Source: Methanothermococcus sp. Ax23 (GTDB lineage: Archaea > AGJL01 > Methanococci > Methanococcales > Methanococcaceae). From it: a DNA stretch of 64,000 nt. Made by a program: the position numbers and the translations under genes. Location of the stretch: positions 128,001 to 192,000 of the forward strand of contig NZ_CP157522.1 in the NCBI RefSeq assembly GCF_049075655.1. The letters are read 5' to 3'. Under the pieces are notes generated by a model. It ran no database searches and was not told the DNA's origin. It worked only from the letters and a program-made list of their open reading frames with translations. Shown in pieces: positions 1 to 63,274 of this stretch (positions are counted from its first letter, which is position 1; each line of letters opens with the position of its first letter).

Positions 1-462
1 ATTTAATTCATTTAAAACCTTTTCCCCTTCTGCTTTTGTCCATCCATAGTAGTTTATGGGATTTACCTCATCATCTTCAACATAATTGCCCTTTTCCCCA
101 TCAAAAACATAATCTGTGGATATATGGCATAATGGAATATTTAGTTTTTTACATGCTTCACCGATATATCCAACAGCAAGAGCATTTGTTTTATATGCCA
201 ATTCTCTCTCAGTTTCGCATAAATCCACATTGGTAATAGCCGCAGTATTTATAACAAAATCCGGATTTATACCCATAATAGTTTCTTTTATTTTGTTTTC
301 ATTGGCAATATCCACAAAATGTTTAGTTATACCGCTATCACTATCAAAAAGCCCTTTATCGCTCCTTGTAATTACATGAACCTTAAAGCCCAAATCATCA
401 TATTTTTTAACGAGCTCATACCCTATCATACCCAAGCCAATAATTGCTATTTTTTCCCCCAC
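1..462 (-). CDS. rfbD: dTDP-4-dehydrorhamnose reductase (runs off the window start)
   Basis: Manual translation from GTG at 462 (RBS GGTGA): VGEKIAIIGLGMIG...NTAAITNVDLCE...HISTDYVFDGEKG...NYYGWTK, showing RmlD motifs; follows rfbB. Confidence 0.88.
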   Translation of the reverse strand, partial: MGEKIAIIGLGMIGYELVKKYDDLGFKVHVITRSDKGLFDSDSGITKHFVDIANENKIKETIMGINPDFVINTAAITNVDLCETERELAYKTNALAVGYIGEACKKLNIPLCHISTDYVFDGEKGNYVEDDEVNPINYYGWTKAEGEKVLNELN

Positions 463-466
463 ATTA

Positions 467-1462
467 TCACCATTTCAATTTCCAAGGAGTTGGATGGAGA
501 ACCTTATCATTAATCAGCGGTTTCCACCACCATTCATTATTGAGATACCAATTAACAGTTTCTTTTAACCCCTCTTCAAAATCATACTTTGGCTTCCAGC
601 CGAGCTCCTTCAATTTTGAAGAATCTAAACTATATCTAACATCATGACCTGGTCTATCTTCCACAAATTCTATCAAATCTGATGGTTTATGCATGAGCTC
701 CAATATCATTTTAACAATTTCAATGTTCATTTTTTCATGATTTGAAGAGATATTATAAACCTCTCTTTTTTCCCCTTTTTCTAAAACCGTTTCAATCCCA
801 CTACAATGGTCTAACACATACAGCCAATCCCTAATATTGTCTCCTTTTCCATATATTGGGATTTTTAAATCAGAGTTTGCCCTAATTATTGTTTTTGGAA
901 TTAATTTTTCTGGAAATTGATATGGGCCGTAATTATTTGTGCATCTCGTTATCTTTGCATTTAAATTATATGTTCTCGCATACCCTAAAACAAGCATATC
1001 ACCGCCTGCTTTACCTGCTGAATAAGGAGAAGATGGCATTAGCCTATCCTTTTCTGTAAATGAACCCTCTTCAATATCTCCATACACTTCATCTGTACTG
1101 ACACCAATAATATTAACATCTGGATTATACTTCCTAATGGCCTCTAAAATTGTATAAACTCCTATAATATTACTTTCTAAAAATGAATAGGGGTCGGATA
1201 TACTTCTATCCACATGAGTTTCAGCGGCAAAATTAACAACGGCATCCACATCCTTAATCAATCCAGAAACTAATTCAAAATCGTTTATATCTCCCTTAAC
1301 GAATGAATATCTTGAATTATCAATGTCTTTTAAATTTTCTAAGTTTGAACCATAACCAAGTTTATCAAGGTTTATAACCTCCCAATCCTTATGTTTGTTT
1401 AAAATATATCTTATGAAATTACTTCCAATAAATCCTGCTCCGCCTGTAACCAACATTTTCAT
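467..1462 (-). CDS. rfbB: dTDP-glucose 4,6-dehydratase
   Basis: GGAGFIG, AAETHVDRS, STDEVYG, YSAGK and DRPGHD motifs. Confidence 0.96.
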   Translation of the reverse strand: MKMLVTGGAGFIGSNFIRYILNKHKDWEVINLDKLGYGSNLENLKDIDNSRYSFVKGDINDFELVSGLIKDVDAVVNFAAETHVDRSISDPYSFLESNIIGVYTILEAIRKYNPDVNIIGVSTDEVYGDIEEGSFTEKDRLMPSSPYSAGKAGGDMLVLGYARTYNLNAKITRCTNNYGPYQFPEKLIPKTIIRANSDLKIPIYGKGDNIRDWLYVLDHCSGIETVLEKGEKREVYNISSNHEKMNIEIVKMILELMHKPSDLIEFVEDRPGHDVRYSLDSSKLKELGWKPKYDFEEGLKETVNWYLNNEWWWKPLINDKVLHPTPWKLKW

Positions 1463-1561
1463 TATTCCACCAATTTAATATTTATATATCGTTCTTTCTT
1501 CGTTTTTCTTTTTTTCTTTTTTTCTTTCGTTCTATTGGATTAGCTCGGAAAGGAGTGGGAC

Positions 1562-2434
1562 TTATTTAACGAGCTTTTCCAAATATTTTCCATAATCAGT
1601 TTTTAATAATGGCTCGGCAAGTTTTAGGAGCTCATCCTTTGTTATCCATCCATTATGATAGGCAATCTCTTCCAAACATCCAACCATCAATCCCATTCTT
1701 TTTTCCACTGCTGCAATAAAATTACTTGCTTCCAAAAAACTCTCATGGGTTCCAGCATCAAACCATGCCGTCCCCCTTGGTAAAAGTTTTACCTTTAATT
1801 TATTTCTTTTTAAATACTCATTATTTACATCAGTTATTTCCAACTCTCCTCTCCATGAAGGTTTTATATTTTTCGCAATATCAATAACATTATTATCGTA
1901 AAAGTAAAGACCGATTACTGCATAATTTGAAGGCGGATTTTTCGGTTTTTCAATTATTTCCTTTACATTTCCATTTTCATCAAATTCAACAACCCCATAT
2001 CTTTCAGGGTCTTTTACATACTGACCAAACACCACACCCCCTCCATCTTTTAGGAGCTCCTCTTTTGCATCAAGTAAAAATCCTGTCAATCCACTTCCAT
2101 ATACAATATTATCTCCAAGTATGAGACATACGCTGTCATCCCCTATAAACTCTTCCCCAATAATAAATGCCTCTGCAAGCCCTCTCGGTTCCAGCTGTTC
2201 TTTATATTGTATATTTATTCCCAAATGCCCACCATTTCCTAAAAGTTTTTTATATCTCGGCAAATCCTCAGGTGTTGTTATTATCAATATATCCTTAATT
2301 TTAGACAGCATTAAAACAGATAGTGAGTAATATATCATAGGTTTGTTATATATTGGCATCAGATGTTTATTTCCAGCATAGGTAATGGGATATAACCTAG
2401 TTCCAGAACCTCCCGCTAAAATTATACCTTTCAT
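1562..2434 (-). CDS. rfbA: glucose-1-phosphate thymidylyltransferase
   Basis: [29 protein letters not shown] and WFDAGT motifs. Confidence 0.96.
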
Positions 2435-2512
2435 TATTTCACCATTTTAATATATTTAATGTAATTTATATATTACGATAAACCGCCGGGAAAGCCAACG
2501 ACTTCAGTCGTT

Positions 2513-2549
2513 ATACAAAACATAGTTTTGTAAAATCTCTTACGAGATT
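2513..2549. repeat. 37-bp double-hairpin micro-insertion in the IS left-end hairpin
   Basis: Absent from the homologous left end at about 49395-49442; hairpins TACAAAAC-ATA-GTTTTGTA and AATCTC-TTAC-GAGATT; flanked by TT. Confidence 0.8.
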
Positions 2550-2656
2550 GGATGAGAGGCGGACATTCTATATTCCACACAATCAAAAATTATATGTAAT
2601 TAAATAATATGTAATTAAATATATAAACTATATTTATAAGAACTATGGTGAATTCC

Positions 2657-3918
2657 ATGCAAGTAACCAGAGTGCTGACAATAAACCTAACAAGAAAACT
2701 AACCAATGAACAATTAATAATCATAAACCATTTAACCTATTCAGCATCAAAACTCTGGAATACATCCAACTACGAAGTAATACAGCGAAATATTAAACCA
2801 AATAAAATAGATGTTCAAATGAAGAACAACTTCTGGTTTAAAAATCTTCATTCACAGTCAGCACAGGCAGTATGTCAAAAACTTCAAATTAGACGAAAAC
2901 CTTCGGTTTTCGTTGCTCGCTTGCTACGCAAGCGATTGCATGGCAAAACTACTTCAAACAGCACACTAAAAGACCACGATACCAACCAAAAGATGGACAC
3001 TTTCCCGTAAAATGGAAGAAGCAAGGTTTCAAAATCATAGGCAATAAGTTAAGGTTATCATTATCTAAACAAACTAAAAACTATCTCAAAGAGAAGCATG
3101 GTATCAAGTCCAAGTACTTATGGGTAGATTTATCGAAAACTCTACCGCTTGATACCATGCAGGTTAAAGAAGTTGAGATAGTTCCGCAGACCATCTATGG
3201 GATAACCTACTACATACTTCACTTAATCCATAAGAAACCAGTAATTCAAGAACCTATCAAAGAAGGTAATATACTAAGTATTGATTTAGGAATTAAGAAT
3301 TTAGCAACAGTAGTAACCAATACGGGCAGTGCAGTAATCTACGATGGAAGAAGGTTAATTTCTAAATTCCGATGGTTTGCTAAAAGTAAAGGAAAAATCC
3401 AATCTACCCTAACAAAGCAAGAGTTAAAATATAATAAACGATTATCCCGCTTAACAGTAAGGGAAAAGAATTATACTAAGGATTATCTACATAAAATAAG
3501 TAAAATGATTATCGATTTTGCAGTGGATAACAAAGTTTCAAGGATTGTAATCGGCGAGTTAAACAAAGGCATTTCAAGTATTGACATTGGAGATAGGGTT
3601 AATCAGCAATTGCATAGAATACCTTTTGGTAGGTTAGTAAGTATGATAACATATAAGGCAGAGGAAAAGGGATTAACAGTAGAACAGGTTAATGAAGCTT
3701 ATACTTCTCAAACTTGCAGTAATTGTGGTGTAGTTAAAAAGAGTAATAGGAAGTATAGGGGTTTGTATGTGTGTAGTGAGTGTGGCATGGTTTTGAATGC
3801 AGACATTAACGGGGCTTTGAATATTTTAAAAAAAGTATCGCATAAGGTAGCCCTGAATCTCCTAAACGGAGATAGGGGTAGTGGGCTTGGCAACCCATGT
3901 AGGGTTAGACCCTGCTAA
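2657..3918 (+). pseudogene. tnpB: TnpB RNA-guided nuclease, frameshifted by a 47-bp insertion
   Basis: Removing 2891-2937 joins the two ORFs into one 404-aa frame (QKLQI|AWQNYFKQ..KWKKQGFK..); SIDLG, IGEL, CxxC..CxxC and NADING motifs intact. Confidence 0.92.
2891..2937. repeat. 47-bp double-hairpin micro-insertion in tnpB
   Basis: ACGAAAACC-TTC-GGTTTTCGT plus TCGCTTGC-TAC-GCAAGCGA; ATT repeated at the junctions; homologue at 49139-49189. Confidence 0.88.
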
Positions 3919-3953
3919 AGAACCCCACGACTTTAGTCGTGGGAGTAGGTCAG
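3840..3953 (+). ncRNA. putative TnpB omega/reRNA scaffold overlapping the tnpB 3' end and right end
   Basis: Known IS200/IS605 architecture; this segment is retained in the deleted copy at about 49105-49262; 5' boundary approximate. Confidence 0.55.
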
Positions 3954-4030
3954 TTAATGCTAAAATCAAAGGTTTTTTAATCACCTTGAAGGAATTTTTA
4001 ATCCTCCACTACACATAGGATGGTGCCATT

Positions 4031-4774
4031 ATGTTTCTATTCAATGAAAAAATTTCAATAAAGGAAACCAATATAACTTTAAAAACAGAGGCAGAAAAAT
4101 TTATAAAACTTGCAAAAAAAACCATTTTAAGGGAAAGAATAAATCTTGAAAATTATATTTTAAAACATCCTGAATTCCTAACAAGCTATGTCCCAGTAAG
4201 GGTTAGTGTTGATGCACCGAAAATAGTTAAGATAATGGCAAGAGCAGGAGAAAATGCAGATGTTGGACCTATGGCATCTGTTGCAGGAACCATAAGTCAG
4301 ATGGTAGTTGAAAATGCTGTAAAATATGGATGTAAAAATATAATATCGGAGAACGGTGGAGATATAGCACTAAGGGCTGAGAAAGATATTGTGGTTGGGC
4401 TATATGCTGGAACATCTTCATTATCTGGTCAGATTGGATTTAAAATAGAAAAAGAGAAAACTTCAAAAGGATATGGTGTATGCACATCTTCGGGGACTGT
4501 TGGGCATTCTGTAAGCCTTGGAAATGCTGATGCAGTTGTGGTTTTTGCAAAAGAAAGTAGTATAGCAGATGCCGCAGCCACGAGTATAGGAAACTTTGCC
4601 ACCGGAGCTCCTGATGAAGCCATTAATAAATGTTTGGAAAAGGCAGAAGATATTGATTATTTAGACGGCGTTTTTGTCGTTGTTGGAGAATATGCCGGTA
4701 AAATCGGAAAAATACCACAATTGGTTAAAACCGATAAAAAAGTTGCACTTGGAGAGTTTTTTGAGATGATATAA
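4031..4774 (+). CDS. UPF0280 / ApbE-like family protein
   Basis: VGPMASVAG, ENGGDIA, CTSSGTVGHSVSLG and ADAAAT motifs. Confidence 0.85.
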   Translation: MFLFNEKISIKETNITLKTEAEKFIKLAKKTILRERINLENYILKHPEFLTSYVPVRVSVDAPKIVKIMARAGENADVGPMASVAGTISQMVVENAVKYGCKNIISENGGDIALRAEKDIVVGLYAGTSSLSGQIGFKIEKEKTSKGYGVCTSSGTVGHSVSLGNADAVVVFAKESSIADAAATSIGNFATGAPDEAINKCLEKAEDIDYLDGVFVVVGEYAGKIGKIPQLVKTDKKVALGEFFEMI

Positions 4775-4803
4775 CAATTATTAATATAATTACAAAATGT
4801 TTT

Positions 4804-5436
4804 TTAGAATATATTTTTTTCCCGGAGCTCCCCTATTATCTCATCATGCACTTCTTCAATGGTCTTTCCAGTGGTATCTATTTGAATATATCCATATTTT
4901 GGTTCAAACAATCTTCTTTCAATGATTTCATGATATTTTTTTCTTACCTTCTCCAACATTTCCTTATTTTCAAATATTTCTTTACTTCTTCCACCCATTC
5001 TTTTAAATGATTCTTCAATATCCACATCTAAAAATATTAAAACATCGGGTTTTTTGGCAAATTTATTGATATTCATGATAAAATCCAATTCAATCCCCTG
5101 AATAGACTGATAAACCATTGAAGAATAAATATATCTATCGCAAACAATGTGGGATTTTTTTAAATTTTGTTCTATATCCACTACATGCTCCACCCTATCT
5201 GCTGCAAACAGCAGTGCAAGTGTTTCTTTTTCGCATTTCGAGCGTAGCGAGGAATGAGCAAGTCCGCAGGATTTGCGTAATTTTTTACCGCTTAATACCT
5301 TTCGTATAAGTTTTCCAATCTCTCCATTTGTAGGTTCGCAGGTGTATTTTCCCTTTATTTTTTCAGAAAGTAGTTTCGACTGGGTAGTTTTTCCGCTTCC
5401 ATCTATTCCTTCAAACACTATGAATTTATTATTCAT
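4804..5436 (-). CDS. tmk: thymidylate kinase, carrying an in-frame ~15-aa palindromic insert
   Basis: [12 protein letters not shown]-loop, LLFAADR and CDRYIYSS motifs. Confidence 0.93.
5236..5280. repeat. 45-bp in-frame double-hairpin micro-insertion in tmk
   Basis: GC-rich; encodes [15 protein letters not shown]; hairpins GCAAGTCC-GCA-GGATTTGC and stem-GAGC-GTA-GCGA-stem on the + strand. Confidence 0.75.
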
Positions 5437-5569
5437 TTCTTCCACCAAATGCTAAATACTGCTATACACTATACTGTTTATAACTAAAAAGAGAATATAA
5501 TAAAATATATGATATAACAAATCCGCATAATAATATCCATTATAATAATACAGGTTTACAATTATAGAT

Positions 5570-7495
5570 TTATAAATTCTTTAATAATTCAATTTCTTTA
5601 TCCAAATCTGGTTTTCTTATGCTTTTTACTGAAAATTCAAGGTCTTCAAACCTTCTATCTGCTGAACCATGGAATATAAATTCTTCACCAAGTAATGCAT
5701 CCAGGAGCTCCAAATTAGCATCTTTCAATTTATCCATTGGAGTTTCAGTAATTCTTTCCACAGTTCTACCGTATAATCTGCAAGTAATGTTGCCTGTGCC
5801 ATCATCCACGGTTAATGTAGCTACTGCAACTTCCCTAGGTTCAACTTCTCCGCATTCATCACAATTATAACTACCTTCGCTTAAAACTGCTTTTTTACCA
5901 CAATTTGGGCACAAATGCAATATTAAATCCTGTTTTCTGTAATCTACAATTGCCCCTCTAATTTCAGCAGTTTCTCCTTCTTCAAGCTCTTTTATAAACT
6001 TCCTATTTACTTTTATATCTATACCTTCGGGATTGACAACAATTCTTCCAAATCTACCTATGTTTAAATCAACAAATTCCCCGCTATCCTTCACATATCC
6101 ATGAATTATTTTTACAATATCTCCCTCTTTTATGTCGAGCTCCGCATCCTTGTCCCATAACACCAATCTGATTTTTCCAGTTTCATCTTCTATCATCATG
6201 TTTCTTACTTTTCCTGTGGTTCCGTCGCCTCTTTCAAATTCATTAATATCATATATAACTGATACCCTTCCAACTGTTGTAATGTCATTTTTTGATTCTT
6301 CATCTAATTTATAAATATCATTTATTTTAATTATGTTTTCAGCGTATTCAGGAGCTCCGATGGATTCATCCTTTATTACTTTTGAATCAGATTGTGCAGA
6401 TAATGATATTATTTCATTCCCTTCAAAATCGGTGTAGGATTTAACCTTACAGTTTGTGATTTTTACGGCGTCTCCTTCTTTTATATCATTTAACGCATTG
6501 GTATTTCTTCCCCAAAATGATATTCTAACATTTCCGCTGTTGTCCATTAAATTAATTTCCTGAACATCCACCTCCCTATCATCAAATTTAACCGTTCTTG
6601 GATTTGAAATATGGGTAATTCTACCCTTTACAATTACAACATCATCCTTGTAGTTTGGGAGCTCCGATATATCCACCTCTGGAACCTCTGCAACTTCTCC
6701 TTTATTTAATATATTTATGGTATTGACATTTATATCAAGTCCTCTTAATCCTTCCTTCACATAACCTTTTACCTCAACAACGTCCCCCTTATTTACCTCA
6801 ATTTCTGCCAAATCATCCCAGAGAGTGCCCCTTATTGTTCCCGTATCATCTTTTAGTATGAAGGATTTTACCCTTCCAACTGACCCATCTTTTCTTGGGA
6901 ATTCTCTCTTATCATAGGATGCTGTAATTTCTCCCTTTATTGTGGCAGGCATATTTGGGGTGAGCTCTGAAATACTATAATATTCCTTCACTATGGGATA
7001 CTTAGATTCATCGTAATCTTCAAGTTTTTCAATGTTTAAATCAGAACCGCTGTTTAATTCGATTCTATTATTCCATTTTCTTGAAAATGCGTTTGTTATT
7101 TCAATAACATCCCCTTTTTTTAAATTATCAACCAGTTGCACCTTATCATTCCAAAGTGTTAATCTAATGGAACCTGTATTATCTGCAATAATTATGCTCC
7201 TTACTTTTCCCTTTGTTCCATCTTTTCTGCTAAATTCCTTTACGTCAGAAATATCCATAATTTTTCCAGTGACTTCTACATTTCTCTGACCTTCGGCTAT
7301 ATCTTTAATAGAAAAGCCATATTCTTCATCATCGTCATATTCTAAATCTAAGCCTAAATCACTGGCAATTATTGAAATTGCAGCTTTTTCATCCATTAAT
7401 CCAGAGTGTTCATTTATTACTTCATTAATTTTAGTTTCAAGTTCTTTTTCAGACATTTTTGTCAATATTTTTTGTTTTAATTTTTCAATATCCAT
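5570..7495 (-). CDS. rpa: replication protein A (multiple OB folds plus Zn finger)
   Basis: Repeated DxTGxIRxTLW OB-fold motifs; CPNC..CDEC. Confidence 0.93.
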   Translation of the reverse strand: MDIEKLKQKILTKMSEKELETKINEVINEHSGLMDEKAAISIIASDLGLDLEYDDDEEYGFSIKDIAEGQRNVEVTGKIMDISDVKEFSRKDGTKGKVRSIIIADNTGSIRLTLWNDKVQLVDNLKKGDVIEITNAFSRKWNNRIELNSGSDLNIEKLEDYDESKYPIVKEYYSISELTPNMPATIKGEITASYDKREFPRKDGSVGRVKSFILKDDTGTIRGTLWDDLAEIEVNKGDVVEVKGYVKEGLRGLDINVNTINILNKGEVAEVPEVDISELPNYKDDVVIVKGRITHISNPRTVKFDDREVDVQEINLMDNSGNVRISFWGRNTNALNDIKEGDAVKITNCKVKSYTDFEGNEIISLSAQSDSKVIKDESIGAPEYAENIIKINDIYKLDEESKNDITTVGRVSVIYDINEFERGDGTTGKVRNMMIEDETGKIRLVLWDKDAELDIKEGDIVKIIHGYVKDSGEFVDLNIGRFGRIVVNPEGIDIKVNRKFIKELEEGETAEIRGAIVDYRKQDLILHLCPNCGKKAVLSEGSYNCDECGEVEPREVAVATLTVDDGTGNITCRLYGRTVERITETPMDKLKDANLELLDALLGEEFIFHGSADRRFEDLEFSVKSIRKPDLDKEIELLKNL

Positions 7496-7514
7496 AATTT
7501 CACCATATTAAACG

Positions 7515-7632
7515 TAGTGAGAGATTACGAAACCTTGTTTCGTTGTTTTATTTTTTAATGCAATTTAAAATCTCTGATTTTTATTATTCTGAGTATTAGT
7601 GAGAGATTGGACAAAAATCAGAAGATTTTTGT
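7515..7632. repeat. cluster of short hairpins with a 12-bp direct repeat upstream of rpa
   Basis: TAGTGAGAGATT at 7515 and 7597; hairpins ACGAAAC-CTT-GTTTCGT, AAAATC-TCT-GATTTT and ACAAAAATC-AGAA-GATTTTTGT. Confidence 0.6.
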
Positions 7633-7964
7633 AGCACCTTTCGTGATTAAACTCTCTCTTTGAGATTTAGATTATATCGAAGATAATTAGAAAATCCCTA
7701 TTTCTTAAAATCAATATTAATAATCATTAAATAATATATACTATGAAATCATAATAAAACTATTAAATAAATTTATAAATATTGGACCTATGACTATATT
7801 AAGTTAATCATAATATTATAAAATAAAGACTATAAAATATTTTATATATGATAAAATTAATTATTTCTTAGTTTCTTAGCAGCGATAAATATAAGTAAAA
7901 AGAGATATATCATAATCCAAAATATTAATCAACAAAAATAAGTCAAAAAAAGGATAGTGAGAAA

Positions 7965-52677: not shown

Positions 52678-54111
<1,434 letters not shown>

Positions 54112-54177: not shown

Positions 54178-55377
54178 TTATTCTACAACTTTTTTGTTGT
54201 TCTTTGGATGTCTTTTTTCCTTATCTATTTCCATCTGTTTTAAAACTGAATCTAAGGCATCCTTTAATACTTCTATGAAATCCCATCTCTGTTTTTCAAC
54301 TACGAGCTGGATATCCTCCCCTTCCATTTCCATTCTTTTTGCGGTGGATAATTTAGGCTTTCCTTCTGCAACATAAAGTTTTCTTGGAGTTTTTACATAT
54401 ACTTTAACTATATAGTATGGAACCCCTCCTTTATCGTGCTCTTTTTTCATTACAATTTTAATCCAGTGGAGTCTTTTAGACTGCTTTGCTATTTTTTTAA
54501 CTTCTGTCATTAAAATTCTTTCTGCGAGCTCTCTCATTTCTTCATCAAATTCACCATGGAGCTCCACTTCAATTACAGATTCTTCTCTTAAATTCTTTAT
54601 ATATTTCATTATATCTATTCTTGTAACAATTCCTCTTAATGTTCCTTTTTTGGTAACCGGAACTCCTCTGATGTCGTGTTTCTCCATCAACTTTGCCACA
54701 TCAGCAATTGATGATTCTACATCCGCAGTGATAAGTGGGGAGTTCATAATCATAGATACTGGCTGAGCCATTCTTGGAACTTTCTCCCCCGCATACTCTC
54801 CAACGGTCATTTTTTTCTTAGGTTTAAATACTTTCCTTAAAATGTCATCCTCGGTAACTATCCCTATTGGGTCTCCTTCTTCATCGAGAACTACCAACCT
54901 TCCGATGTTGTATTTTCTCATTAAGCTCCTAGCTTTACCTATGCTTTCATCTTTATCAATTGTAATTGGACTTCTTGTCATTATCTTAGTTACTTTAACA
55001 TCTTTTAGGAGCTCCGATTTTCCTGCCCTTTTCATTATGTCATAGTCAGTTACAATTCCTACTAATTTTCCGTTTTCATCCACAATAGGTGCGGCTCTTT
55101 GACCACTGCCTATTATTTCACATACTGCATCCATTACTGGCGTGTTTTGGTCGATACAATGTGGTTTAAACATCAAAGCCTCAACATTTTCATTTAATGA
55201 TGATGCTAAAAGTAAATCATGTATTGTTATCATATGTATGTTTTCATTTTCATCCATAACTATTAAGTTGTGGAAGTTGTGGCTTTCCATTACCCCTATC
55301 GCCTTTGATATTGGAGTGTCTGGCGTGATTGTAATCACGTCTTTTGTTGCTATCTCTATTACGGGTTCGTTTAACAT
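54178..55377 (-). CDS. tandem CBS domain protein
   Basis: Four CBS repeats plus a C-terminal domain. Confidence 0.85.
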   Translation of the reverse strand: MLNEPVIEIATKDVITITPDTPISKAIGVMESHNFHNLIVMDENENIHMITIHDLLLASSLNENVEALMFKPHCIDQNTPVMDAVCEIIGSGQRAAPIVDENGKLVGIVTDYDIMKRAGKSELLKDVKVTKIMTRSPITIDKDESIGKARSLMRKYNIGRLVVLDEEGDPIGIVTEDDILRKVFKPKKKMTVGEYAGEKVPRMAQPVSMIMNSPLITADVESSIADVAKLMEKHDIRGVPVTKKGTLRGIVTRIDIMKYIKNLREESVIEVELHGEFDEEMRELAERILMTEVKKIAKQSKRLHWIKIVMKKEHDKGGVPYYIVKVYVKTPRKLYVAEGKPKLSTAKRMEMEGEDIQLVVEKQRWDFIEVLKDALDSVLKQMEIDKEKRHPKNNKKVVE

Positions 55378-55438
55378 ACCCTCACCTCATTGCCGTATTG
55401 TCAATAAATATATGAAAATAATGCTATTTAAACTTTTG

Positions 55439-55476
55439 GAGCGAAGCAGAGAGCTATATAAATCCGAAGGATTTTT
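55439..55476. repeat. probable double-hairpin micro-element upstream of the CBS gene
   Basis: GAGC-GAA-GCAGAG..AAATCC-GAA-GGATTT, same layout as the tmk insert. Confidence 0.55.
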
Positions 55477-55611
55477 ATTCAATATATTGATATATTTCGT
55501 TTTATTTAATATGGAAAATATGGAATGGAATGTCGCCAATAATGGTGAAAATAAAAAAATAAAAAAGAAAATGAAAAAAAGAAGATTGTATATTATTCCA
55601 GTTAATCATCT

Positions 55612-56295
55612 TTATTCGTTCATTAACATTCCTTTAAACATGTTTAACCCATCATCAGAACCCAATACTTTTTCGCTGGCCCTCTCTGGATGAGGCATTA
55701 ATAAAACGCAGTTTCCATTTTCATTGCATACTCCTGCTATGTTATCAACTGAACCGTTTGGATTGGCATCTTCGGTAATTTCTCCGTTTTCATCGCAGTA
55801 TTTAAATACTATCATATTCTTTTTATACATCTCTTGGAGTGTATCATCATCGGTGTAAAATCTACCTTCTGCATGAGCTATTGGTATCTTTAAAACATCT
55901 CCTTTTTTGTAGCATTTTGTAAATGGAGTGTTGTTGTTTTCAACTCTTATATAAACCCATTTACATATGAATCTTGCATTTATGTTATTTGTTAATGTTC
56001 CGTATGAAAAACCTGCTTCCAATCCTATCTGAGCTCCGTTGCAAATACCCAATACTGGTTTTCCATCATCAACCATCTTTTTTAATCCCTGTATTACTGG
56101 TGTTTTTGAGCTTATGGCACCTGCTCTTAAATAATCTCCGTAGGAAAACCCGCCGGGTATTACCGCACCTTTAAATTTGCTCAAATCAGTCTCAGAGAAC
56201 CATACCAATTCTGGTTTTCCTCCTGCTAATTCAATAGCATGACATACATCTTTATCACAATTTGTGCCCAAAAATTTTACAACTGCAATGTCCAT
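55612..56295 (-). CDS. purQ: phosphoribosylformylglycinamidine synthase glutaminase subunit
   Basis: PGGFSYGDYLRAG, GICNG and MPHPER motifs. Confidence 0.96.
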   Translation of the reverse strand: MDIAVVKFLGTNCDKDVCHAIELAGGKPELVWFSETDLSKFKGAVIPGGFSYGDYLRAGAISSKTPVIQGLKKMVDDGKPVLGICNGAQIGLEAGFSYGTLTNNINARFICKWVYIRVENNNTPFTKCYKKGDVLKIPIAHAEGRFYTDDDTLQEMYKKNMIVFKYCDENGEITEDANPNGSVDNIAGVCNENGNCVLLMPHPERASEKVLGSDDGLNMFKGMLMNE

Positions 56296-56385
56296 ATTAT
56301 CACTATAAATAATATATTGAAATTATTGTATCATTTAAATTATGATTATATTATAATTATGTTAGAATATATTAACTATAAATGA

Positions 56386-56685
56386 TTATTCCCTTTTTAA
56401 TTCAGAAGCTAAAACCTTTAAAAATTCTTTTGTTAATATATTAACTTTTTCAGTTCTTTCTGCTATTTCCATAATTTTTACTCTTAATCTCTCTTCATCA
56501 CAGCATTCAATATCCCTTGCTTTGATGGTTTTTCTCTTATCTTTTCTCGCGTTTTCCTCTGCCAATTTTGTTGTGGTTACGATGTATTCTTGTAAAATTT
56601 CCACAAGCTTTTCAACCGATTCAGCAGATATGTTCATATCTGTATTTTCCTTCATCAGCCTCTTAACTGTCCCTTTTGGTATCAT
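56386..56685 (-). CDS. hmvA: MJ1647/HMvA-type archaeal histone with C-terminal extension
   Basis: IPKGTVKRLMK..RKTIKARDI histone fold plus a ~30-aa tail. Confidence 0.82.
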   Translation of the reverse strand: MIPKGTVKRLMKENTDMNISAESVEKLVEILQEYIVTTTKLAEENARKDKRKTIKARDIECCDEERLRVKIMEIAERTEKVNILTKEFLKVLASELKRE

Positions 56686-56842
56686 AATAAAACCTCCTGT
56701 TTTAAATACTAAATAGATATTGTGTTTAAATTTATTTAAAGTTTATGCATATTTTTTAAAATATTTTGATAGATGTTGGTAAAATAAAAAATAAAATATA
56801 ATTGGCAGAAATAACTTAAAAATAAATTATAATAAAGGGGAA

Positions 56843-58495
56843 TTATTTCAACACCGCCCCTTCATCTGCGGAAGATACCAATCTTGAATATCTTGCCAAA
56901 TAGCCTTTTTTAACCTTTGGCTCTGGTTTTTCCCATTTTGAGAGCCTTTCCTTTATTTCTTCATCGCTTAATTTTAACTCAATTTTTTTAGCAATCATGT
57001 CTATGCTGATTATGTCGCCATCTTCGATTATGGCAATAGGTCCACCAGCCATAGCCTCGGGGGATATATGCCCTATACATGGTCCCCTACTTCCACCGCT
57101 GAACCTACCATCTGTAATTAGTGCAACGCTGTCATCCAATCCCATACCACATATAGCAGATGTTGGGGAGAGCATTTCTCTCATTCCAGGTCCTCCTGCT
57201 GGTCCTTCGTATCTTATTACAACAACATCTCCCTCTTTAATGTCTCCGCTGAGTATTGCTTTTATGGATTCCTCCTCTGAATCAAACACTCTCGCAGGTC
57301 CCTGGTGCTTATACATCTTTGGATTTACTGCACCAATCTTAACAACACATCCATTTGGTGCGAGATTTCCCTTTAAAATCCTTAAACCTGCCTCTTTATG
57401 AACTGGTTTATCCATTGGTCTTATAATGCTGTAATCGATATATTTTACGCCGTTTATAATTTCTTTTATGGTTTTTCCACTTACTGTTTTTGCGTCCCTT
57501 ACCTTCTCTTCCAAAACCTTTAATACTGCTGGAATACCCCCTGCCTTGTGTAAATCAATTATAAAGTGCTCTCCACCAGGTCTAAGGGATGCTATGTGTG
57601 GAACTTCATCACTTAATCTGTCAAAGTCATCAAGTGTGATGAATCCCCTTTCTATCTCATTGGCTATTGCAGGTATGTGGAGTGTTGTATTTGTGGAACC
57701 ACCAAGTGCCAAATCAACCAATATGGCATTTTCAAAGGATTCCTTTGTTAATATGTCCGTTGGTTTTATGTTGTTTTTCACTAAATCAACTACTCTCATC
57801 CCGCTTTTTTTCGCAATTCTTACCTTCTGAGCATCGACAGCAGGAGTTGTTGCACACATTGGGAGTGATAAACCGAGTGCCTCTGTTAAACATGCCATAC
57901 TGTTTGCGGTGAATAATCCTGCACAGCTCCCAGCACCTGGGCAGGCACAGTTTTCAATCTCACTTAATGCCTCTTCATCAATTTTTCCAACCTGGTATTC
58001 CCCAACTCCTTCAAATACGCTTATAAGGTCATACTTCTTTCCGTGCATTTCTCCCGGGAGCATAGGACCCCCAGTCACTACAACAAATGGTATGTTTAAC
58101 CTCAGAGCTCCCATTATCATACCGGGAACTATTTTATCACAGGATGGAATAAGCACCAATCCATCAAATCCATGTGCCTTAGCCATGCTTTCTACTGTAT
58201 CTGCGATTATTTCCCTTGAAGGTAGGGAATACCTCATACCCTCATGCCCCATGGCTATACCATCACATACCGCCATGGTGTTGAATTCAAATGCAGTTCC
58301 GCCGTTTGCATATATTCCTTTTTTTACAGCTTCTGCAAGAGTGTTCAAATGAATATGTCCTGGAACCACTTCTGTGAAGCTATTTACAACCCCTATAAAA
58401 GGTCTGTTTATTTCTTCATCAGTGTATCCGCATGCCTTCAATAAACTTCTGTTTGGAGACCTTGTAATGCCTGTTTTCACATTGTCGCTTATCAT
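56843..58495 (-). CDS. ilvD: dihydroxy-acid dehydratase
   Basis: [20 protein letters not shown] and TDGRFSG motifs. Confidence 0.96.
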
Positions 58496-58623
58496 CTCAT
58501 CACCTATTGCATCAATAAAAATCAAAATAAAATAATTATTCAAATAATATAAATATATTTATTTATAAAGTTATATATCAAAACTAATTATTATTTATTT
58601 TTCTTATTTTTCTTATTGTAGTT

Positions 58624-59904
58624 TTAACTTTTTATTTTATCCTTTTTATACTGTATAAACAACAAAATCATCAAGAATATAGATATTGAAGATATTAATG
58701 TTGCATAAGCTCCCCCGATTATCCCAAGTTTGTTTATAAGCGCATAATTTAGAACACCATTTAATACTATGCCAAATAACAGGATATACAACGGTATCTT
58801 AGCATAACCTAAACCTTGAAGTGAAGAACTGCATATTGTATATGAGCTCATAAACCCCGCAGAAATTGATAATATTTTTAAACATATTGATGCTAGATAA
58901 TCATCCACTCCAAAGAAAATCATTAAAAACTCTTTTGAAAATATAAACGCCATTGCAAGGACTGGAAGAATTATTAAAAAGTTCATTAAAAGTGCTTTTT
59001 TAAAGTAGTTGAAATCCTTTGTTTTTGCTATTCTCGGTATCAACGGAATGGATATTGCAGAAGCAAACAAAAAGACTCCTCTGGAAAGTAGGGAAGCATA
59101 ACCATAAATACCGTTATCATAAGCCCCTAATATTGACATTATAAATATGCTGTCCAAATCATTTAAAAGACGATAGGACGCCGTTCCCAAAGCTATTGGA
59201 ATGGCATATAACAATATTTTTTTAACAAGTTCTTTATTTTCATTTAGGGATGATTTAAATGATGATGCACCGATATTAAAAGATTTTCTCAACAAATAAA
59301 AGCCAAAAATCCCGCCAACAATATATGCAAATGATATGGACAGCAGAGCTCCGAAGACTCCAAACAATGATGCAAAAATTATCACAAATAATATCTTAAA
59401 GGTGTGTTCTATTACCCATGTTTTGGAGAGCTCCTTTATCTTTAACATACCCTGCAAAACTCCCCTATTCCAAGATATAAAAGATGAAGATATTATTGCA
59501 AACCCAACTGCAAGGTATAATGTGATGTCTATATTTTTATATCCCCCACCAAGTATGTATTTTAACAAAATTGTAATCAGAGCTCCGACAACTGAAAAAA
59601 TCAGCATAATCTTTAAAACAGATACAATCCATTCATTGTTATTTTTTGTCTGAAATTCGGAAATGTGTTTTGCCATTGACGGCGGGATACCTGAGCAAAA
59701 AAATATTGTCATTACATCCATCAACGGCAAAAGTCCCCTAAGTGTCCCAAATCCTTCTGTTCCAAGGATAAGAGCAGTTAAAAAATAAAATACATAAGCC
59801 ATTCCCTTTGAATAAATGTTTGAAAAAATCATGTAAAAACTGTCCTTTACCAGTCCATCCTTTTTTAAATTCTTAAATTTTTTAAATTTCAACATGTTTA
59901 TCAC
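58624..59904 (-). CDS. polysaccharide flippase (Wzx/MOP family)
   Basis: About 12 TM segments; LGTEGFG and GIIGGAYAT patterns. Confidence 0.8.
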   Translation of the reverse strand: MINMLKFKKFKNLKKDGLVKDSFYMIFSNIYSKGMAYVFYFLTALILGTEGFGTLRGLLPLMDVMTIFFCSGIPPSMAKHISEFQTKNNNEWIVSVLKIMLIFSVVGALITILLKYILGGGYKNIDITLYLAVGFAIISSSFISWNRGVLQGMLKIKELSKTWVIEHTFKILFVIIFASLFGVFGALLSISFAYIVGGIFGFYLLRKSFNIGASSFKSSLNENKELVKKILLYAIPIALGTASYRLLNDLDSIFIMSILGAYDNGIYGYASLLSRGVFLFASAISIPLIPRIAKTKDFNYFKKALLMNFLIILPVLAMAFIFSKEFLMIFFGVDDYLASICLKILSISAGFMSSYTICSSSLQGLGYAKIPLYILLFGIVLNGVLNYALINKLGIIGGAYATLISSISIFLMILLFIQYKKDKIKS

Positions 59905-59928
59905 TAAAAAGAAAAATAGTTTATTTAT

Positions 59929-62427
59929 TCAGTTTGCCTTTGTATAAATTTCATTGTCATAGATATGTTTTTTAATATAATTTAAAAAGTTAGGTATATT
60001 TGACCCAAGTGCATTTTTTAATTTAGTTAGGGCATTTTTTCTCTTCATATCTGGTGTTTTTAAGGCATTTGGTGATAGGTTATCAATACCTCCCTTCTTA
60101 TACTTTTCAAGTAATGAAAAGGCGATTTCTCGTATATCCTCGCCGTATTTGTTTATATGCTGGATATGGGCATTTATAAAGTAATTTACTCTTTCATCCT
60201 TTGTCAATAATGGAGCATCAAAAACCAAGTGAGCAATAATATCAAAGGTATCGTAATCCAATTTATTTTCGAGCTTTTTTATGAGCTCTACATCTATATT
60301 TTTTTCTTTGAGCTTATTTAGAAATTCCTTTCTTAAATTGTCGTTAATCCACATATTTTTTAAATCCTCCGTGGTATGAACTTCTTTTAATATATTCTCC
60401 TTTGTGTATTGTTTATACTCTGCGAAGGATATTTTATTTCCATCAAACTCTATATCTATTTCTTCGGCAATTTCTACATTTATACCTCTTACGGTAATGG
60501 TTTTAGGTTTCTTTTTTATAGGTTTTAATTCAAATATGGGATTTTCTATTTCTTTTAAATCGTTTAGGCTTATTTTCTTTTTTAAGGTTCTATACCCCTC
60601 CTTTGATATTGTAAGTGGTAAAAGTTTGTTTGATGGTAGTTCGTTTAATTCAAAGTGCCCGTTTTTTTCGGATAATACTTCTTTTTTAAATCTTTCAATT
60701 TTTATTATTACTTTTGCATCTGATATCGGTTCTTTTGTGTTTTTATCAATTACAAAACCTTTTAATGATTTATTGTATGGTTTTTCTGGCTTTTCTTCGT
60801 CTGGTGATGTTATTGGGGATGGTATTTCCCATTTATCAATTAATCTTGTTGCGTTGGTAAAATCTATTATTCTAAAAAATCCCTTATTATCTGATAATCT
60901 CGCACCCCTTCCTACGATTTGTTTAAATAATACCCTTGAATTAACTGGTCTCATAAATACAATGTTTTTAAGATGTGGTATGTCAATACCTGTTGATAGT
61001 AAATCCACAGTTGTGGCTATTTGTGGGTAAAGGTTTTCATTATCTCTAAATCGTTCTAAATCATCTTTATCTTCATAAACTATCTTTGTTGCAAATTCCT
61101 CATTGTTCGTGAGCTGGTTTAATATGCCCCTAACATTTTCCGCATGTATTGTATCTACACAAAATATTACCGTTTTTTGGCGGTCGTTTGTTCTTTTAAG
61201 AATCTCCAATAATTTTTCACACATTAGTTTTGTTCTATCTGGAAGATGAATGCTTATCTCAAATTCGGAAGGGTCATAATAATCCTTAATATCTGACTCA
61301 TTTATTTCATCGTCGTAGATTATCTCTTCCGCCTGTGATATATCTACGCCGTTTAAATCAATATTTGTGAAAATTTTATGAATTTTGTAGGGGACTAAAT
61401 AGCCGTCCTCTATTGCCTGTGCCATTGAATAGGTAAAAACTGGCTCTCCAAAGTATTCATAAACATCTATGTTATCTTCCCTCTTTGGTGTTGCCGTCAT
61501 ACCTAATTGATAGGAGTTTTTAAAATATTCTAAAATATTTCTCCATTCCCCATATCCTGAGCGGTGGCACTCATCTATAAGTATTAAATCAAAAAAATCT
61601 TCTGGTATTTTTTTATATAAATCGTTGGAATATAATGTTTGATATGTTGAAAAATAGATTTTTCTGTTTTTGTTAAAATTTCCTGATTTTATTTGATACT
61701 TGGCATCTTTAAAAGGTTCATAGTTGTCATGTGCCTGCTCTCTTAAAAATACTCGGTCTGTTAAAAATAAAACTCTTGATAGGTAGTTGCTTTTTATTAA
61801 TTTCCAAACTATTTGAAAAGATGTAAAGGTTTTCCCTGTTCCTGTTGCCATTGTTAAGAGTATTCTTTTTTGACCTTTTAAAATTGATTCAATTACTTTT
61901 TTTATTGCTGTTTCTTGGTAGCTCCTTACTTTTTTGTTTGTGTTTGAATCTATGTAGTATGGGTATTCTAATGGGGATATATCTTTATATTCCAATCCTT
62001 TCCATTCTTTGTATATGGCGTATAGTTCATTTGGTGGTAAAAATTCATTAACTTCTTTTGTTTCCTTTGTTCTTCTGTCATAAACTATTATTTTTCTTCC
62101 ATTTGTTGCATAGGCAATTGGAACATCCAGCATTTTGGAATATTCCATTGCCTGAGATAGTCCTGCTTCTGCATCTTTTTTGTATTTTTTTGCTTCAATT
62201 ACTCCAACTATTACATTATTTATTTTTAAAACATAATCCGCAAACCTGTTTTTTATTTCGATTTTTTTATATTCGTCCCCTGCTATATAGTATCTGTATT
62301 TATTTTTTATTGGATATTCTCTTATTATGTTATTTTCTCCCCATCCTGCTTTTATTAGTTTTGGTTTTATCAGCTTTTCCTTTGTGTCTGCTTCTGATAA
62401 ATTATTTAAATCCATTCTTTCCCTCAA
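59929..62427 (-). CDS. hsdR: type I restriction enzyme R subunit (EcoAI/EcoEI-like)
   Basis: ADY..IEAK nuclease; MATGTGKT, DECHR, TATP and QIVGRG helicase motifs. Confidence 0.92.
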   Translation of the reverse strand: MRERMDLNNLSEADTKEKLIKPKLIKAGWGENNIIREYPIKNKYRYYIAGDEYKKIEIKNRFADYVLKINNVIVGVIEAKKYKKDAEAGLSQAMEYSKMLDVPIAYATNGRKIIVYDRRTKETKEVNEFLPPNELYAIYKEWKGLEYKDISPLEYPYYIDSNTNKKVRSYQETAIKKVIESILKGQKRILLTMATGTGKTFTSFQIVWKLIKSNYLSRVLFLTDRVFLREQAHDNYEPFKDAKYQIKSGNFNKNRKIYFSTYQTLYSNDLYKKIPEDFFDLILIDECHRSGYGEWRNILEYFKNSYQLGMTATPKREDNIDVYEYFGEPVFTYSMAQAIEDGYLVPYKIHKIFTNIDLNGVDISQAEEIIYDDEINESDIKDYYDPSEFEISIHLPDRTKLMCEKLLEILKRTNDRQKTVIFCVDTIHAENVRGILNQLTNNEEFATKIVYEDKDDLERFRDNENLYPQIATTVDLLSTGIDIPHLKNIVFMRPVNSRVLFKQIVGRGARLSDNKGFFRIIDFTNATRLIDKWEIPSPITSPDEEKPEKPYNKSLKGFVIDKNTKEPISDAKVIIKIERFKKEVLSEKNGHFELNELPSNKLLPLTISKEGYRTLKKKISLNDLKEIENPIFELKPIKKKPKTITVRGINVEIAEEIDIEFDGNKISFAEYKQYTKENILKEVHTTEDLKNMWINDNLRKEFLNKLKEKNIDVELIKKLENKLDYDTFDIIAHLVFDAPLLTKDERVNYFINAHIQHINKYGEDIREIAFSLLEKYKKGGIDNLSPNALKTPDMKRKNALTKLKNALGSNIPNFLNYIKKHIYDNEIYTKAN

Positions 62428-62475
62428 AATTTAGTTAAAATTCATATTTATTTCTTCGGAGCTCCGGTTTATATA

Positions 62476-62820
62476 TTATTTGTCGAGCTCTTTTAAAATT
62501 TTTTAATATCGTTTTTTAAATGTGGCAATTTATTTTCAACAACATCCCATATAATTAAAAGATTTATCTTGAAATATGAATGAATTAAAACATCTCTAAA
62601 TCCTGCTATATTTTTCCAGTTGTTATCTGGATATTTAACTTTTATTCATTGGGAATCTTCTTAACAGCCTCACCAATTATCATTAGTTTTTAATTACCGC
62701 ATCTTGAACCATTTGCTGTTCTGAGAACTCATCATAAGTATTGACATTATAAGTGTAATTTTCTATTCTTTCTATTGCCTCTAAAATATCATTTAAGTAT
62801 AATTTATAATCCCTCGGCAT
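62476..62820 (-). pseudogene. hepT: HEPN toxin (DUF86/HepT) with two -1 frameshifts
   Basis: MPRDYKLYLNDIL..DAVIKN / IIGEAVKKIP / YPDNNWKNIAGFRDVLIHSYF..IWDVV in three frames. Confidence 0.85.
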
Positions 62821-63109
62821 ATTCAACCTCGCTTAGGATGTATTTTTTTAGTTCTGGCTTAATATCATCTTTAATCACTAAATCAACTTTTTTATTAAAT
62901 AAATCTTCTAAATAATATTTTAAGCCCATATAATTGTCAAAATTTATATATCCTTTTTCAAATTCTACTAAAATATCTATATCTGATGTTTCTTTCTGCT
63001 CCCCTCTTGCATAACTTCCAAATATTCCAATAGTTTTAACTTTGTATTTTTCTTTTAGTTCCTTTTTATGTTCTAAAAGTATCTTTTTTATTTCGTTTAA
63101 GGTTTTCAT
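62804..63109 (-). CDS. mntA: minimal nucleotidyltransferase antitoxin (MNT)
   Basis: FGSYARGE..SDIDILV..KVDLV motifs; overlaps the HEPN start. Confidence 0.9.
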   Translation of the reverse strand: MKTLNEIKKILLEHKKELKEKYKVKTIGIFGSYARGEQKETSDIDILVEFEKGYINFDNYMGLKYYLEDLFNKKVDLVIKDDIKPELKKYILSEVEYAEGL

Positions 63110-63274
63110 ATTATCCCCCTTCGGAGCTCCTATATTACTTAATTGTATTTAAGAGCTCACTTATTTATATAGTGTTTCCGAGCTCATTTAAAATTGAAAG
63201 TATAAATCTGTTATTTTATAGTATTTTAAGTAATTTTAAACCAACTCCCATTTAAATGCTTTATTTAATTTATA

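Follow-up and report, generated by a model that had tools for sequence, protein, structure and literature searches.

The 64-kb window analyzed here, positions 128001 to 192000 of contig C1, belongs to an archaeal genome (G000) of 1.67 Mb with 31.9% G+C, a second contig of 7.7 kb, and a completeness of 98.9%. Copies of the palindromic hexamer GAGCTC are found along most of its length. The word occurs 70 times (1.1 per kb), compared with 4.08 ± 1.92 and a maximum of 9 in 100 dinucleotide-preserving shuffles of the window, none of which (0/100) reaches 70. Twelve of these copies extend to the octamer GGAGCTCC, for which the shuffles give 0.22 ± 0.42. The original prediction, which was made from the window, had estimated about 70 hexamers and about 12 octamers, with 4 to 5 hexamers expected, and its counts of both words proved to be exact. 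The sites in the window are as follows.

412..63185, palindrome and thus without strand: GAGCTC sites, n=70, first copy 412-417, last copy 63180-63185
GAGCTC starts, part 1: 412, 602, 695, 1628, 2054, 4605, 4825, 5705, 6137, 6352, 6659, 6962, 8220, 8235, 10098, 11266, 13901, 14753, 15247, 15563, 17047, 17144, 19021, 23337
GAGCTC starts, part 2: 25002, 25193, 26365, 27490, 28139, 29217, 29388, 30143, 30327, 31554, 32443, 32768, 34043, 35228, 36207, 38037, 38453, 41715, 42434, 43867, 44808, 45168, 48388, 49692
GAGCTC starts, part 3: 50747, 51345, 51854, 52095, 52268, 53491, 54061, 54526, 54559, 55009, 56031, 58105, 58844, 59346, 59428, 59580, 60283, 62459, 62485, 63124, 63153, 63180
2053..63130: sites with the extended optimum GGAGCTCC (12/70), starting at 2053, 4604, 4824, 5704, 6351, 6658, 36206, 43866, 54558, 55008, 62458, 63123
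62459..63185: non-coding GAGCTC sites, n=5, at 62459, 62485, 63124, 63153, 63180, in the AT-rich spacers C1:190415-190803 and 191109-191274

The last group bears out the claim that the word also occupies non-coding AT-rich DNA. Three of these five sites carry a C at position -2, two of them as TTCGGAGCTCC and one as GTCGAGCTC.

Enrichment of GAGCTC across the genome and its proteome

In the complete G000 sequence, GAGCTC is present 2089 times and ranks first in over-representation among the 4096 hexamers, at 16.75-fold the number expected from base composition; the second palindromic hexamer, CCATGG, stands at 2.64-fold. Relative to a maximal-order Markov model, which absorbs the enriched pentamers GAGCT and AGCTC, the ratio is 1.60-fold. 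The tetranucleotide core does not account for this excess, as the original prediction had allowed it might, since AGCT overall is found at 1.03-fold, with 2089 of its 5055 occurrences inside GAGCTC, and the 15 other NAGCTN words range from 0.32- to 1.28-fold. Enrichment increases in steps with flanking G and C nucleotides, from 7- to 11-fold with no such flank, through 26- to 33-fold with one, to 105-fold with both. The fully flanked form, GGAGCTCC, is the top palindromic octamer of the genome (n=333), and CGGAGCTCCG is present 35 times. Preferences further out are weak and reach ±5. Logos built exclusively from intergenic sites reveal an extra T at position -5 (0.50 and 0.51 versus a background of 0.38-0.39), and a logo of all G000 sites exhibits no extended flank conservation.

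Sites are scattered in a Poisson-like manner, with 12.5 per 10 kb, a variance of 13.5 (variance/mean 1.08), and near-exponential spacing. The related genome G010 gives a variance/mean of 1.00 per 10 kb and likewise near-exponential spacing, and site density across the two genomes is about 1.0 to 1.25 per kb. Intergenic sites of G010 are densest between convergent genes, at 2.76 per kb versus 1.09 and 0.96 for the other arrangements (2.5-fold). Because the word is its own reverse complement, a Chi-like strand or orientation bias is impossible.

For the frame counts in G000, genes were defined as the longest ATG-initiated open reading frames (ORFs) of at least 80 aa, and for the comparison with the genome G005 as those of at least 60 aa. 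G000 is 84% coding, and the "non-coding" class under these calls takes in RNA genes and short ORFs. Sites occur in every reading frame, as had been claimed: 1074 lie in frame 0 (GAG-CTC, encoding Glu-Leu), 610 in frame 1, and 218 in frame 2, with the remaining 187 in non-coding or gene-edge positions. Shuffling synonymous codons within genes yields 183 ± 11 sites, compared with 1904 observed, and every frame is enriched 8- to 14-fold. A first-order codon Markov (dicodon) null predicts 186.6 sites in frame 1 and 59.6 in frame 2, where 618 and 228 are found; the excess therefore survives a treatment under which the original prediction had conceded that it could vanish. Frame 0 lies beyond the reach of a dicodon-preserving null because GAG-CTC is itself a dicodon, and is covered instead by the synonymous shuffle. 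Indeed, GAG-CTC encodes 1074 of the 3880 Glu-Leu dipeptides, compared with 65 expected from codon usage, and is the most biased codon pair of the genome at 19.7-fold (the runner-up is at 5.7-fold); GAG precedes 39% of all CTC codons. Outside genes, the non-coding DNA of G000 has 186 sites versus 11.1 expected (~17-fold), and short intergenic DNA (<400 bp, 21.9% G+C) has 93 versus 3.27 (~28-fold).

The word is also evident in the encoded proteins. Among the [GR]-A-[LPHQR] tripeptides of G000, 72% carry a site in frame 1. In three-way orthologues of G010, G000, and G005, the tripeptide Gly-Ala-Pro (GGA-GCT-CCx) is present 196, 74, and 30 times, respectively, when ~30 would be expected for every genome; PAG, the reversed control, is found 30, 30, and 21 times. 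The dipeptide Glu-Leu outnumbers Leu-Glu in the same orthologues of G000 (1912 versus 1415) and G010 (1956 versus 1290), and the order is the opposite in G005 (1586 versus 1946). The Gly-Ala-Pro excess shows that a force acting at the level of DNA measurably reshapes the proteome.

Rich and poor relatives, site conservation, and residence time

The order was sampled as 40 species-level genomes, of which five are rich in the word and 35 are poor. Four of the five (G000, G003, G012, and G013) are rich in the hexamer and one (G010) is rich in the octamer.

G000: GAGCTC 2089, GGAGCTCC 333
G012: GAGCTC 2070, GGAGCTCC 335
G003 (90% complete): GAGCTC 1321, GGAGCTCC 184
G013 (sister genus): GAGCTC 1515, GGAGCTCC 191
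G010: GAGCTC 1645, GGAGCTCC 1259

Kinship was judged from one protein, IlvD, whose identity to that of G000 is 93% in G003, 93% in G012, 89% in G013, and 86% in G010. By this measure G010 is as distant from G000 as are the poor genomes G002, G007, and G008. In G010, GGAGCTCC is again the top palindromic octamer, is enriched 571-fold, and makes up 77% of all GAGCTC, copies with one G or C flank are at 7- to 14-fold, and copies flanked by A and T are at 1.4- to 2.3-fold. G000 and G010 thus share one optimum and differ in the stringency with which the flanks are required, and we refer to these states as two "dialects".

Other members of the order avoid the word. G005 has 12 GAGCTC in 1.2 Mb (0.10-fold), and every NAGCTN is avoided there, at 0.03- to 0.31-fold. 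GAGCTC is present 9 times in G008 and 16 times in G002, where AAGCTT numbers 33 and 29, values about 10-fold below those of the rich genomes; AAGCTT is not avoided in G004. Word abundance therefore spans more than 100-fold within one genus, from enrichment to avoidance. Judging from these word frequencies, the avoidance of AGCT in G005, G002, and G008 is probably the footprint of an AluI-like restriction activity.

Depletion of other words is common in these genomes. G000 has GATC at 0.03-fold, GTAC at 0.07-fold, ACGT at 0.10-fold, and CTAG at 0.14-fold, only 18 CTGCAG sites versus 361 expected from a Markov model, and GTGCAC, GTTAAC, GTATAC, CTATAG, CTTAAG, GTCGAC, and CTCGAG at 0.05-0.16 of the Markov expectation. 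ACGT is found 41 times in G010 (0.01-fold). The set of avoided words varies among congeners, and G005 shows no avoidance of hexamers that contain GATC or GTAC. The depletion of these words in G000 and G010 is strong and is probably a footprint of restriction-type avoidance.

Conservation of individual sites over a short evolutionary span was assessed with 60 kb of G012, in which the median protein identity to G000 is 88.7% and the identity at 4-fold sites is 0.655. In 31.4 kb of nucleotide alignments that are 83.0% identical, the conserved fraction is 43.8% for hexamers overall and 33.6% for those with four G+C. The corresponding values for GAGCTC are 40/48 from G000 to G012 and 40/45 from G012 to G000, or 83-89%. 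When codon alignments are restricted to sites whose amino acids are conserved, 34/37 sites are kept, compared with 17/37 control Glu-Leu hexamers. The 14 discordant positions between the two genomes mostly differ at two to five of six bases, and only two are single differences. This pattern looks as if sites decay quickly toward AT-rich synonyms once protection is lost, or as if they arrive in blocks.

Over the longer span to G010 (protein identity 75.7%, 4-fold identity 0.508), 392 of 1573 G000 sites in ungapped codon alignments of orthologues are shared. At conserved Glu-Leu dipeptides, the probability of a site in G010 is 0.333 when G000 has a site and 0.085 when it does not (odds ratio 5.3). 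Octamers of G000 are also octamers in G010 in 137/252 cases, and 593/823 aligned G010 octamers lack a counterpart site in G000. In G005, just 4 of the 1142 positions orthologous to G000 sites read GAGCTC. Sites are thus maintained over short spans and are turned over or independently gained over long ones, according to the stringency of each lineage.

The original prediction also held that site density would track the residence time of DNA, and the share of Glu-Leu dipeptides encoded by GAG-CTC follows this expectation.

Core genes, with orthologues in G010 and G005: 631/1912, 33.0%
Genes shared with G010 only: 286/1014, 28.2%
Accessory genes, without a match in G010 or G005: 52/366, 14.2%
21 TnpB-type open frames: 0/36, 0%

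The difference between core and accessory genes is significant (Fisher P = 4e-14). The 21 TnpB-type open frames, which together cover 22,269 bp, contain 2 sites versus 27.9 expected, for which a Poisson P of 3e-10 is optimistic because the copies are paralogues. The largest site-free gaps of the genome correspond to accessory islands of low G+C and to the Type III restriction-modification (R-M) locus. Three features of the window bear on the same question.

2893..3915, + strand: TnpB-type ORF (Cas12f1-like_TNB, PF07282), one of 21 genome copies, without GAGCTC
10573..18417, + strand: CRISPR-associated (cas) block with an 870-aa ORF without Pfam family, Csc2, a Cas3-like DEAD helicase, and Cas1, with 7 GAGCTC
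19788..22890, + strand: CRISPR arrays (repeat GTTAAAATCAGACCATAGTGGGATGGAAAT) at 19788-20726 and 21258-22860, without GAGCTC

Consistent with what had been noticed originally, the tnpB element and the CRISPR spacers of the window carry no copies, the arrays being spanned by a site-free gap from 19021 to 23337, and the cas block is near host density, with 7 sites in 7.8 kb (0.9 per kb) versus 1.25 per kb genome-wide. All CRISPR arrays of G000 together have 1 GAGCTC in 5,555 bp versus 7.0 at genome density, a difference in the expected direction but of low power, since about half of each array is repeat.

Several further observations concern these regions. Three full-length TnpB copies are 88-89% identical to a G010 protein, compared with a genome median of 76%, which suggests either recent exchange between lineages or a recent burst of the element. 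The 870-aa ORF that heads the cas block (window 10573-13185, + strand) matches no Pfam family at E <= 0.001 and, from its place beside Csc2, may encode a diverged large subunit of the effector complex. Two kilobases upstream of the window, 10 GAGCTC are clustered in 1.2 kb (C1:124789-126021), where a unit of ~40 bp starting GAGCTCCC is present twice; this cluster surrounds small ORFs resembling minimal nucleotidyltransferase-type (MNT-like) genes. It adjoins the largest site-free gap of the genome, 11 kb at C1:113848-124945 with 27.3% G+C.

Candidate enzymes and known iterated words

AGCT-methylation-coupled repair had been put forward as one possible source of the word, and this proposal gained no support. 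Neither a C5 methylase (PF00145) nor Vsr (PF03852) nor a genuine D12/Dam-class methylase was found in G000. PF00145 is likewise absent from G003 and G005, and in G010 and G012 it gives only sub-threshold matches to tRNA methylases. The five DNA methylases of G000 comprise a 300-aa beta-class Type II enzyme that adjoins an orphan ORF, a Type III Mod, a Type I HsdM encoded just beyond the window, and two Eco57I/MmeI-like proteins, and for none of them is there a G010 orthologue. G010 itself encodes one PF01555 enzyme and lacks DNA methylases of the gamma class, and G012 has Type I-type enzymes only. In a search limited to known families, no PF01555 or PF02384 DNA methylase was common to the rich genomes. 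Repair functions present a similar picture, in that MutS is found neither in G000 nor in any of the 22 other genomes of its family (f1; 0/22), and no rich genome yielded MutS or NucS. The deamination neighbors GAGTTC and GAACTC, at 0.88-fold by a zero-order model and 0.93-fold by a Markov model, are not depleted.

Across family f1 (22 genomes plus G000), NucS/EndoMS exceeds the cut-off only in G017, and most members thus have no recognizable mismatch-repair system. In the sister family, MutS is present in 7/17 genomes and NucS in 8/17.

Individual loci were rejected as the cause when their distribution did not follow the trait. The Type II R-M pair at locus L001 (a 300-aa SPPY methylase and a 245-aa orphan ORF) is present in G000, in broken form in G003, and in seven poor genomes of family f2, and was not found in G010, G012, or G013. 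The 567-aa Eco57I-like methylase of locus L006 is present only in G000 and G003. RE_SacI (PF09566) was detected in 0/41 genomes, a weak negative in that the control genomes were silent as well. An island with TGT-like, UvrD, and PD-(D/E)XK genes occurs in G000, G010, G013, and the poor genome G032, and was not found in the rich genomes G012 and G003.

This island (G000:C1:1537329-1542521, or L182:5329-10521) lies outside the window beside a DDE transposase and is present in 4/41 genomes. It encodes a DUF6884/YaaA-like protein of 150 aa, a UvrD-like helicase of 772 aa, a PD-(D/E)XK nuclease of 155 aa, and a divergent TGT-like protein of 420 aa (PF01702, only 33 bits). We take it to resemble the DpdA-type islands for DNA 7-deazaguanine modification and defense. 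A Type I restriction system straddles the end of the window. Its HsdR-like ORF of 832 aa (ResIII, EcoEI_R_C) occupies window positions 59929-62427 on the - strand, and HsdM follows at G000:C1:194179-195684; the syntenic stretch of G012 has an HsdM of equal size (506 versus 507 aa). Small ORFs lie between the two genes, and GAGCTC sites are present on both sides of these ORFs.

Among known iterated words, the closest parallel is HIP1 (GCGATCGC), a highly iterated palindrome (HIP) of cyanobacteria. Passages of one study (PMC13756078) describe it as a short palindrome that is the top word of its length, that has spread by substitution through coding and non-coding DNA, whose orthologous sites are conserved, and whose distribution among lineages is patchy with variants; the same passages call its function unsettled and argue that it is a methylation-dependent uptake signal. 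GAGCTC is also the top word, spread by substitution without indels, conserved at orthologous positions (as judged on 60 kb of G012), and patchily distributed with variants. It differs from HIP1 in being archaeal, in having the core GAGCTC/GGAGCTCC, and in taking the hexamer as its unit in four of five rich genomes. Moreover, HIP1 contains sites for DmtC and DmtA, whereas no cognate methylase of a known family was found for GAGCTC; HIP1 is spaced quasi-periodically, whereas the spacing of GAGCTC is exponential; and MutS/MutL-type repair is lacking here. Elhai reportedly proposed a ratchet for such palindromes, wherein modification and repair restore the marked word.

Uptake signal sequences (USS) of the Pasteurellaceae and DNA uptake sequences (DUS) of the Neisseriaceae are asymmetric 9-12-mers, and the DUS receptor is the pilin ComP. 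These words occur about once per kb, irrespective of orientation or frame, have dialects, leave an imprint on the proteome, and are scarce in recently acquired or mobile DNA. GAGCTC is similar in its density of ~1 per kb, its dialects, its imprint on the proteome, its scarcity in young DNA, and its concentration between convergent genes in G010. Unlike USS and DUS, it is a perfect palindrome of 6-8 bp, and no pilin-like protein specific to rich genomes was found. The uptake apparatus differs as well: passages of PMC10133366 describe natural transformation in members of this order as relying on type IV-like pili, a TctA-like transporter, and a membrane protein with an OB fold, with no ComEC, and report that in one member the gene pair for the OB-fold and TctA-like proteins is essential for natural transformation. 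Such a gene pair is present in G000.

Two other systems produce departures from expected word counts. In enterobacteria, Dcm and Vsr cause CCWGG, a palindromic methylase target, to be over-represented, by well under 2-fold, through repair that restores the motif. GAGCTC is likewise an over-represented palindrome, but G000 lacks a C5 methylase and Vsr, the neighbors that would represent T:G products are not depleted, and the enrichment is 17- to 571-fold. Restriction-site avoidance of the kind described by Gelfand and Koonin likewise concerns Type II-like palindromes, and G005, G002, and G008 avoid the AGCT core; in G000, G003, G010, G012, and G013 the deviation has the opposite sign.

Possible forces behind the word

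We are nearly certain that GAGCTC, with GGAGCTCC as its optimum, is a true highly iterated palindrome. The word, which no other hexamer of the genome exceeds in over-representation, has arisen through base substitution in every frame as well as outside coding DNA, is kept far above the neutral level, accumulates with residence time, alters proteins, and is found in 5 of 40 genomes in two dialects. The likening of the word to HIP1 in the original prediction is upheld in these respects, namely iteration of a palindrome throughout the genome by substitution, presence in all frames and in non-coding DNA, and conservation above neutral expectation.

As to its cause, we favor, at a probability of roughly 0.4, a self-DNA watermark that is spread by a transmission bias linked to uptake or recombination and is read by a dimeric recognizer. 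This belongs with the alternative that the original prediction had offered, a binding, uptake, or self-recognition signal. The symmetry of the word, the variation of its flanks among lineages, and the override of codon and some amino acid preferences point to a symmetric reader of double-stranded DNA, an evolving stringency, and a directional force on resident DNA. In such a mechanism, a recognizer with two-fold symmetry would read the word on double-stranded DNA with a stringency that depends on the lineage. The word would spread through transmission bias rather than mutation bias: word-bearing DNA would have the advantage in uptake, protection, or recombination in these archaea, which are polyploid and recombine, such that alleles that gain a site are over-transmitted and those that lose one are replaced. 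This logic would be the same as that of bacterial USS and DUS and as that proposed for HIP1, and would involve no 5-methylcytosine and very-short-patch repair. Our preference for a watermark rests on the features that match uptake sequences, including density, dialects, proteome imprint, scarcity in young DNA, and the concentration between convergent genes in G010. It rests also on the transformability of the order, the presence of the OB-fold/TctA-like pair in G000, and the argument that HIP1 is an uptake signal.

Several results weigh against a watermark of this kind. A palindromic 6-8-mer is unlike the asymmetric 9-12-mers of USS and DUS and is a hallmark of recognition of the R-M type, and the hexamer discriminates only ~17-fold. 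One-mismatch neighbors of GAGCTC are not enriched (0.5- to 1.2-fold), and thus give no indication of a graded preference. Intergenic sites of G000 show no 3′-end bias (0.37 per kb between convergent genes). Sites in G000 and G010 are spaced exponentially rather than evenly. The avoidance of the core in sister species hints that restriction-type enzymes for AGCT may circulate in the genus. Furthermore, searches for a recognizer were negative. No pilin-like protein specific to rich genomes was found, and the OB-fold/TctA-like pair is non-discriminating, being equally present in the poor genome G005. A phyletic profile (present in G000 and G010, absent from G005, with 80% of G005 covered) gave 375 candidates and no recognizer. 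A synteny-filtered profile left 13 genes, and among the 10 that were judged by eye, without a family search, there was nothing related to DNA; these 10 look like CobD, eIF2-alpha, Fwd subunits, transporters, an OsmC-like protein, and an unannotated 481-aa protein. The other three are short ORFs 94-99% identical to G010.

A bolder form of the watermark proposal would make GAGCTC/GGAGCTCC the first sequence in Archaea for DNA uptake or self-recognition, a palindromic species watermark with lineage dialects that would be read by a dimeric receptor belonging to the transformation or recombination apparatus and spread by a molecular drive that rewrites proteins. Sisters that purge the core would then mark a barrier to gene flow inside a single genus. 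In this full form we consider the proposal doubtful.

The word could instead represent the binding sites of an abundant dimeric protein, either selected for a chromosome function (architecture, segregation, or protection of self against a nuclease) or accumulated passively as a "mutational trap", in which bound DNA would be shielded from damage and sites would be lost by mutation more slowly than they appear. Two-fold symmetry, weak outer preferences to ±5, and a Poisson-like scatter in which each site seems to act alone would all suit such sites. The all-or-none character of the word would fit as well, with its unenriched neighbors and only two single-base differences among the 14 discordant G000/G012 cases, as would the combination of strong conservation and slow accumulation in resident DNA, which is consistent with a lowered exit rate. 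However, none of the profile, the synteny set, and the pilin search yielded a candidate protein, and a passive trap would need mutation to be lowered by ~17-fold for the hexamer and several hundred-fold for the octamer, along with a 6.5-fold excess of Gly-Ala-Pro. In cyanobacteria, electrophoretic mobility shift assays for HIP1-specific binders were unsuccessful according to passages of PMC13756078. We judge this explanation unlikely, though it is the best of the alternatives to a watermark.

A modification-coupled ratchet is, to us, less probable again. In this model, an orphan methylase or base modifier of another family would mark GAGCTC/GGAGCTCC, and repair or strand discrimination would restore or create the word. 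What keeps an R-M-like origin alive is the palindromic nature of the word, as a symmetric 6-8-bp sequence is a classical Type II-like target, together with the fact that sister species avoid this core: the purge in G005 and the ~10-fold lower AAGCTT and GAGCTC in G002 and G008 imply that enzymes reading the core may exist in the genus. The strong conservation of sites between G000 and G012 would fit repair that restores the motif, and each cyanobacterial HIP is reported, in passages of PMC13756078, to have a cognate methylase. Conversely, G000 has no PF00145, Vsr, or genuine D12-class methylase, its five DNA methylases have no G010 orthologue, neither the L001 pair nor the L006 methylase follows the distribution of the trait, and the complements of G010 (one PF01555 enzyme, no gamma-class) and G012 (Type I-type only) offer no substitute. 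Nor do the repair survey (MutS in neither G000 nor the 22 other f1 genomes, NucS in no rich genome) or the RE_SacI search (0/41, with controls equally silent) supply the missing parts. Methylation-coupled repair in its known form lacks every known component here, and the neighbor depletion that it predicts is absent (0.88-fold); it is not supported.

Two further origins have been ruled out, the first of them for most sites. It is very improbable that the word stems from copies or footprints of a dispersed repeat or mobile element: one local cluster, that of 10 sites in 1.2 kb with its repeated ~40-bp unit, would fit, but the logo of all sites has no extended flank conservation, ungapped codon alignments with G010 orthologues contain 1573 G000 sites, and the actual mobile elements, those with TnpB, are almost free of the word. 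A by-product of composition, codon or codon-pair usage, or amino acid sequence, for which one could cite the half of sites that are in-frame GAG-CTC and the Markov ratio of only 1.60, has practically no chance of being correct given the synonymous shuffle (183 versus 1904, in all three frames), the dicodon null (187 versus 618 and 60 versus 228), the 17- to 28-fold intergenic enrichment, and the G005 orthologues, which encode the same residues with 4/1142 GAGCTC in a genus where the word varies more than 100-fold.

A literature search, which did not extend to supplementary files, found no prior description of a GAGCTC signal, and in the searched text of Elhai 2015 (PMC4390886) the terms archaea, Methano, and GAGCTC have 0 occurrences. 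The word would be the first HIP- or USS-like iterated word in Archaea, and one without a cognate methylase. Highly iterated palindromes have been a puzzle for 30 years, confined to cyanobacteria and entangled with two methylases, and the archaeal case is independent. With a different word, no detectable cognate methylase or mismatch repair, two dialects, and a range of more than 100-fold among congeners, these genomes provide a natural comparative system in which a methylation ratchet, an uptake signal, and a binding site can be set against one another. Whatever the mechanism, site saturation records, like a clock, how long accessory and mobile DNA has resided in these genomes. If uptake or recombination is biased by the word, archaeal gene transfer would gain its first known sequence-specific step, and adding the word to transforming DNA may aid genetic tools.

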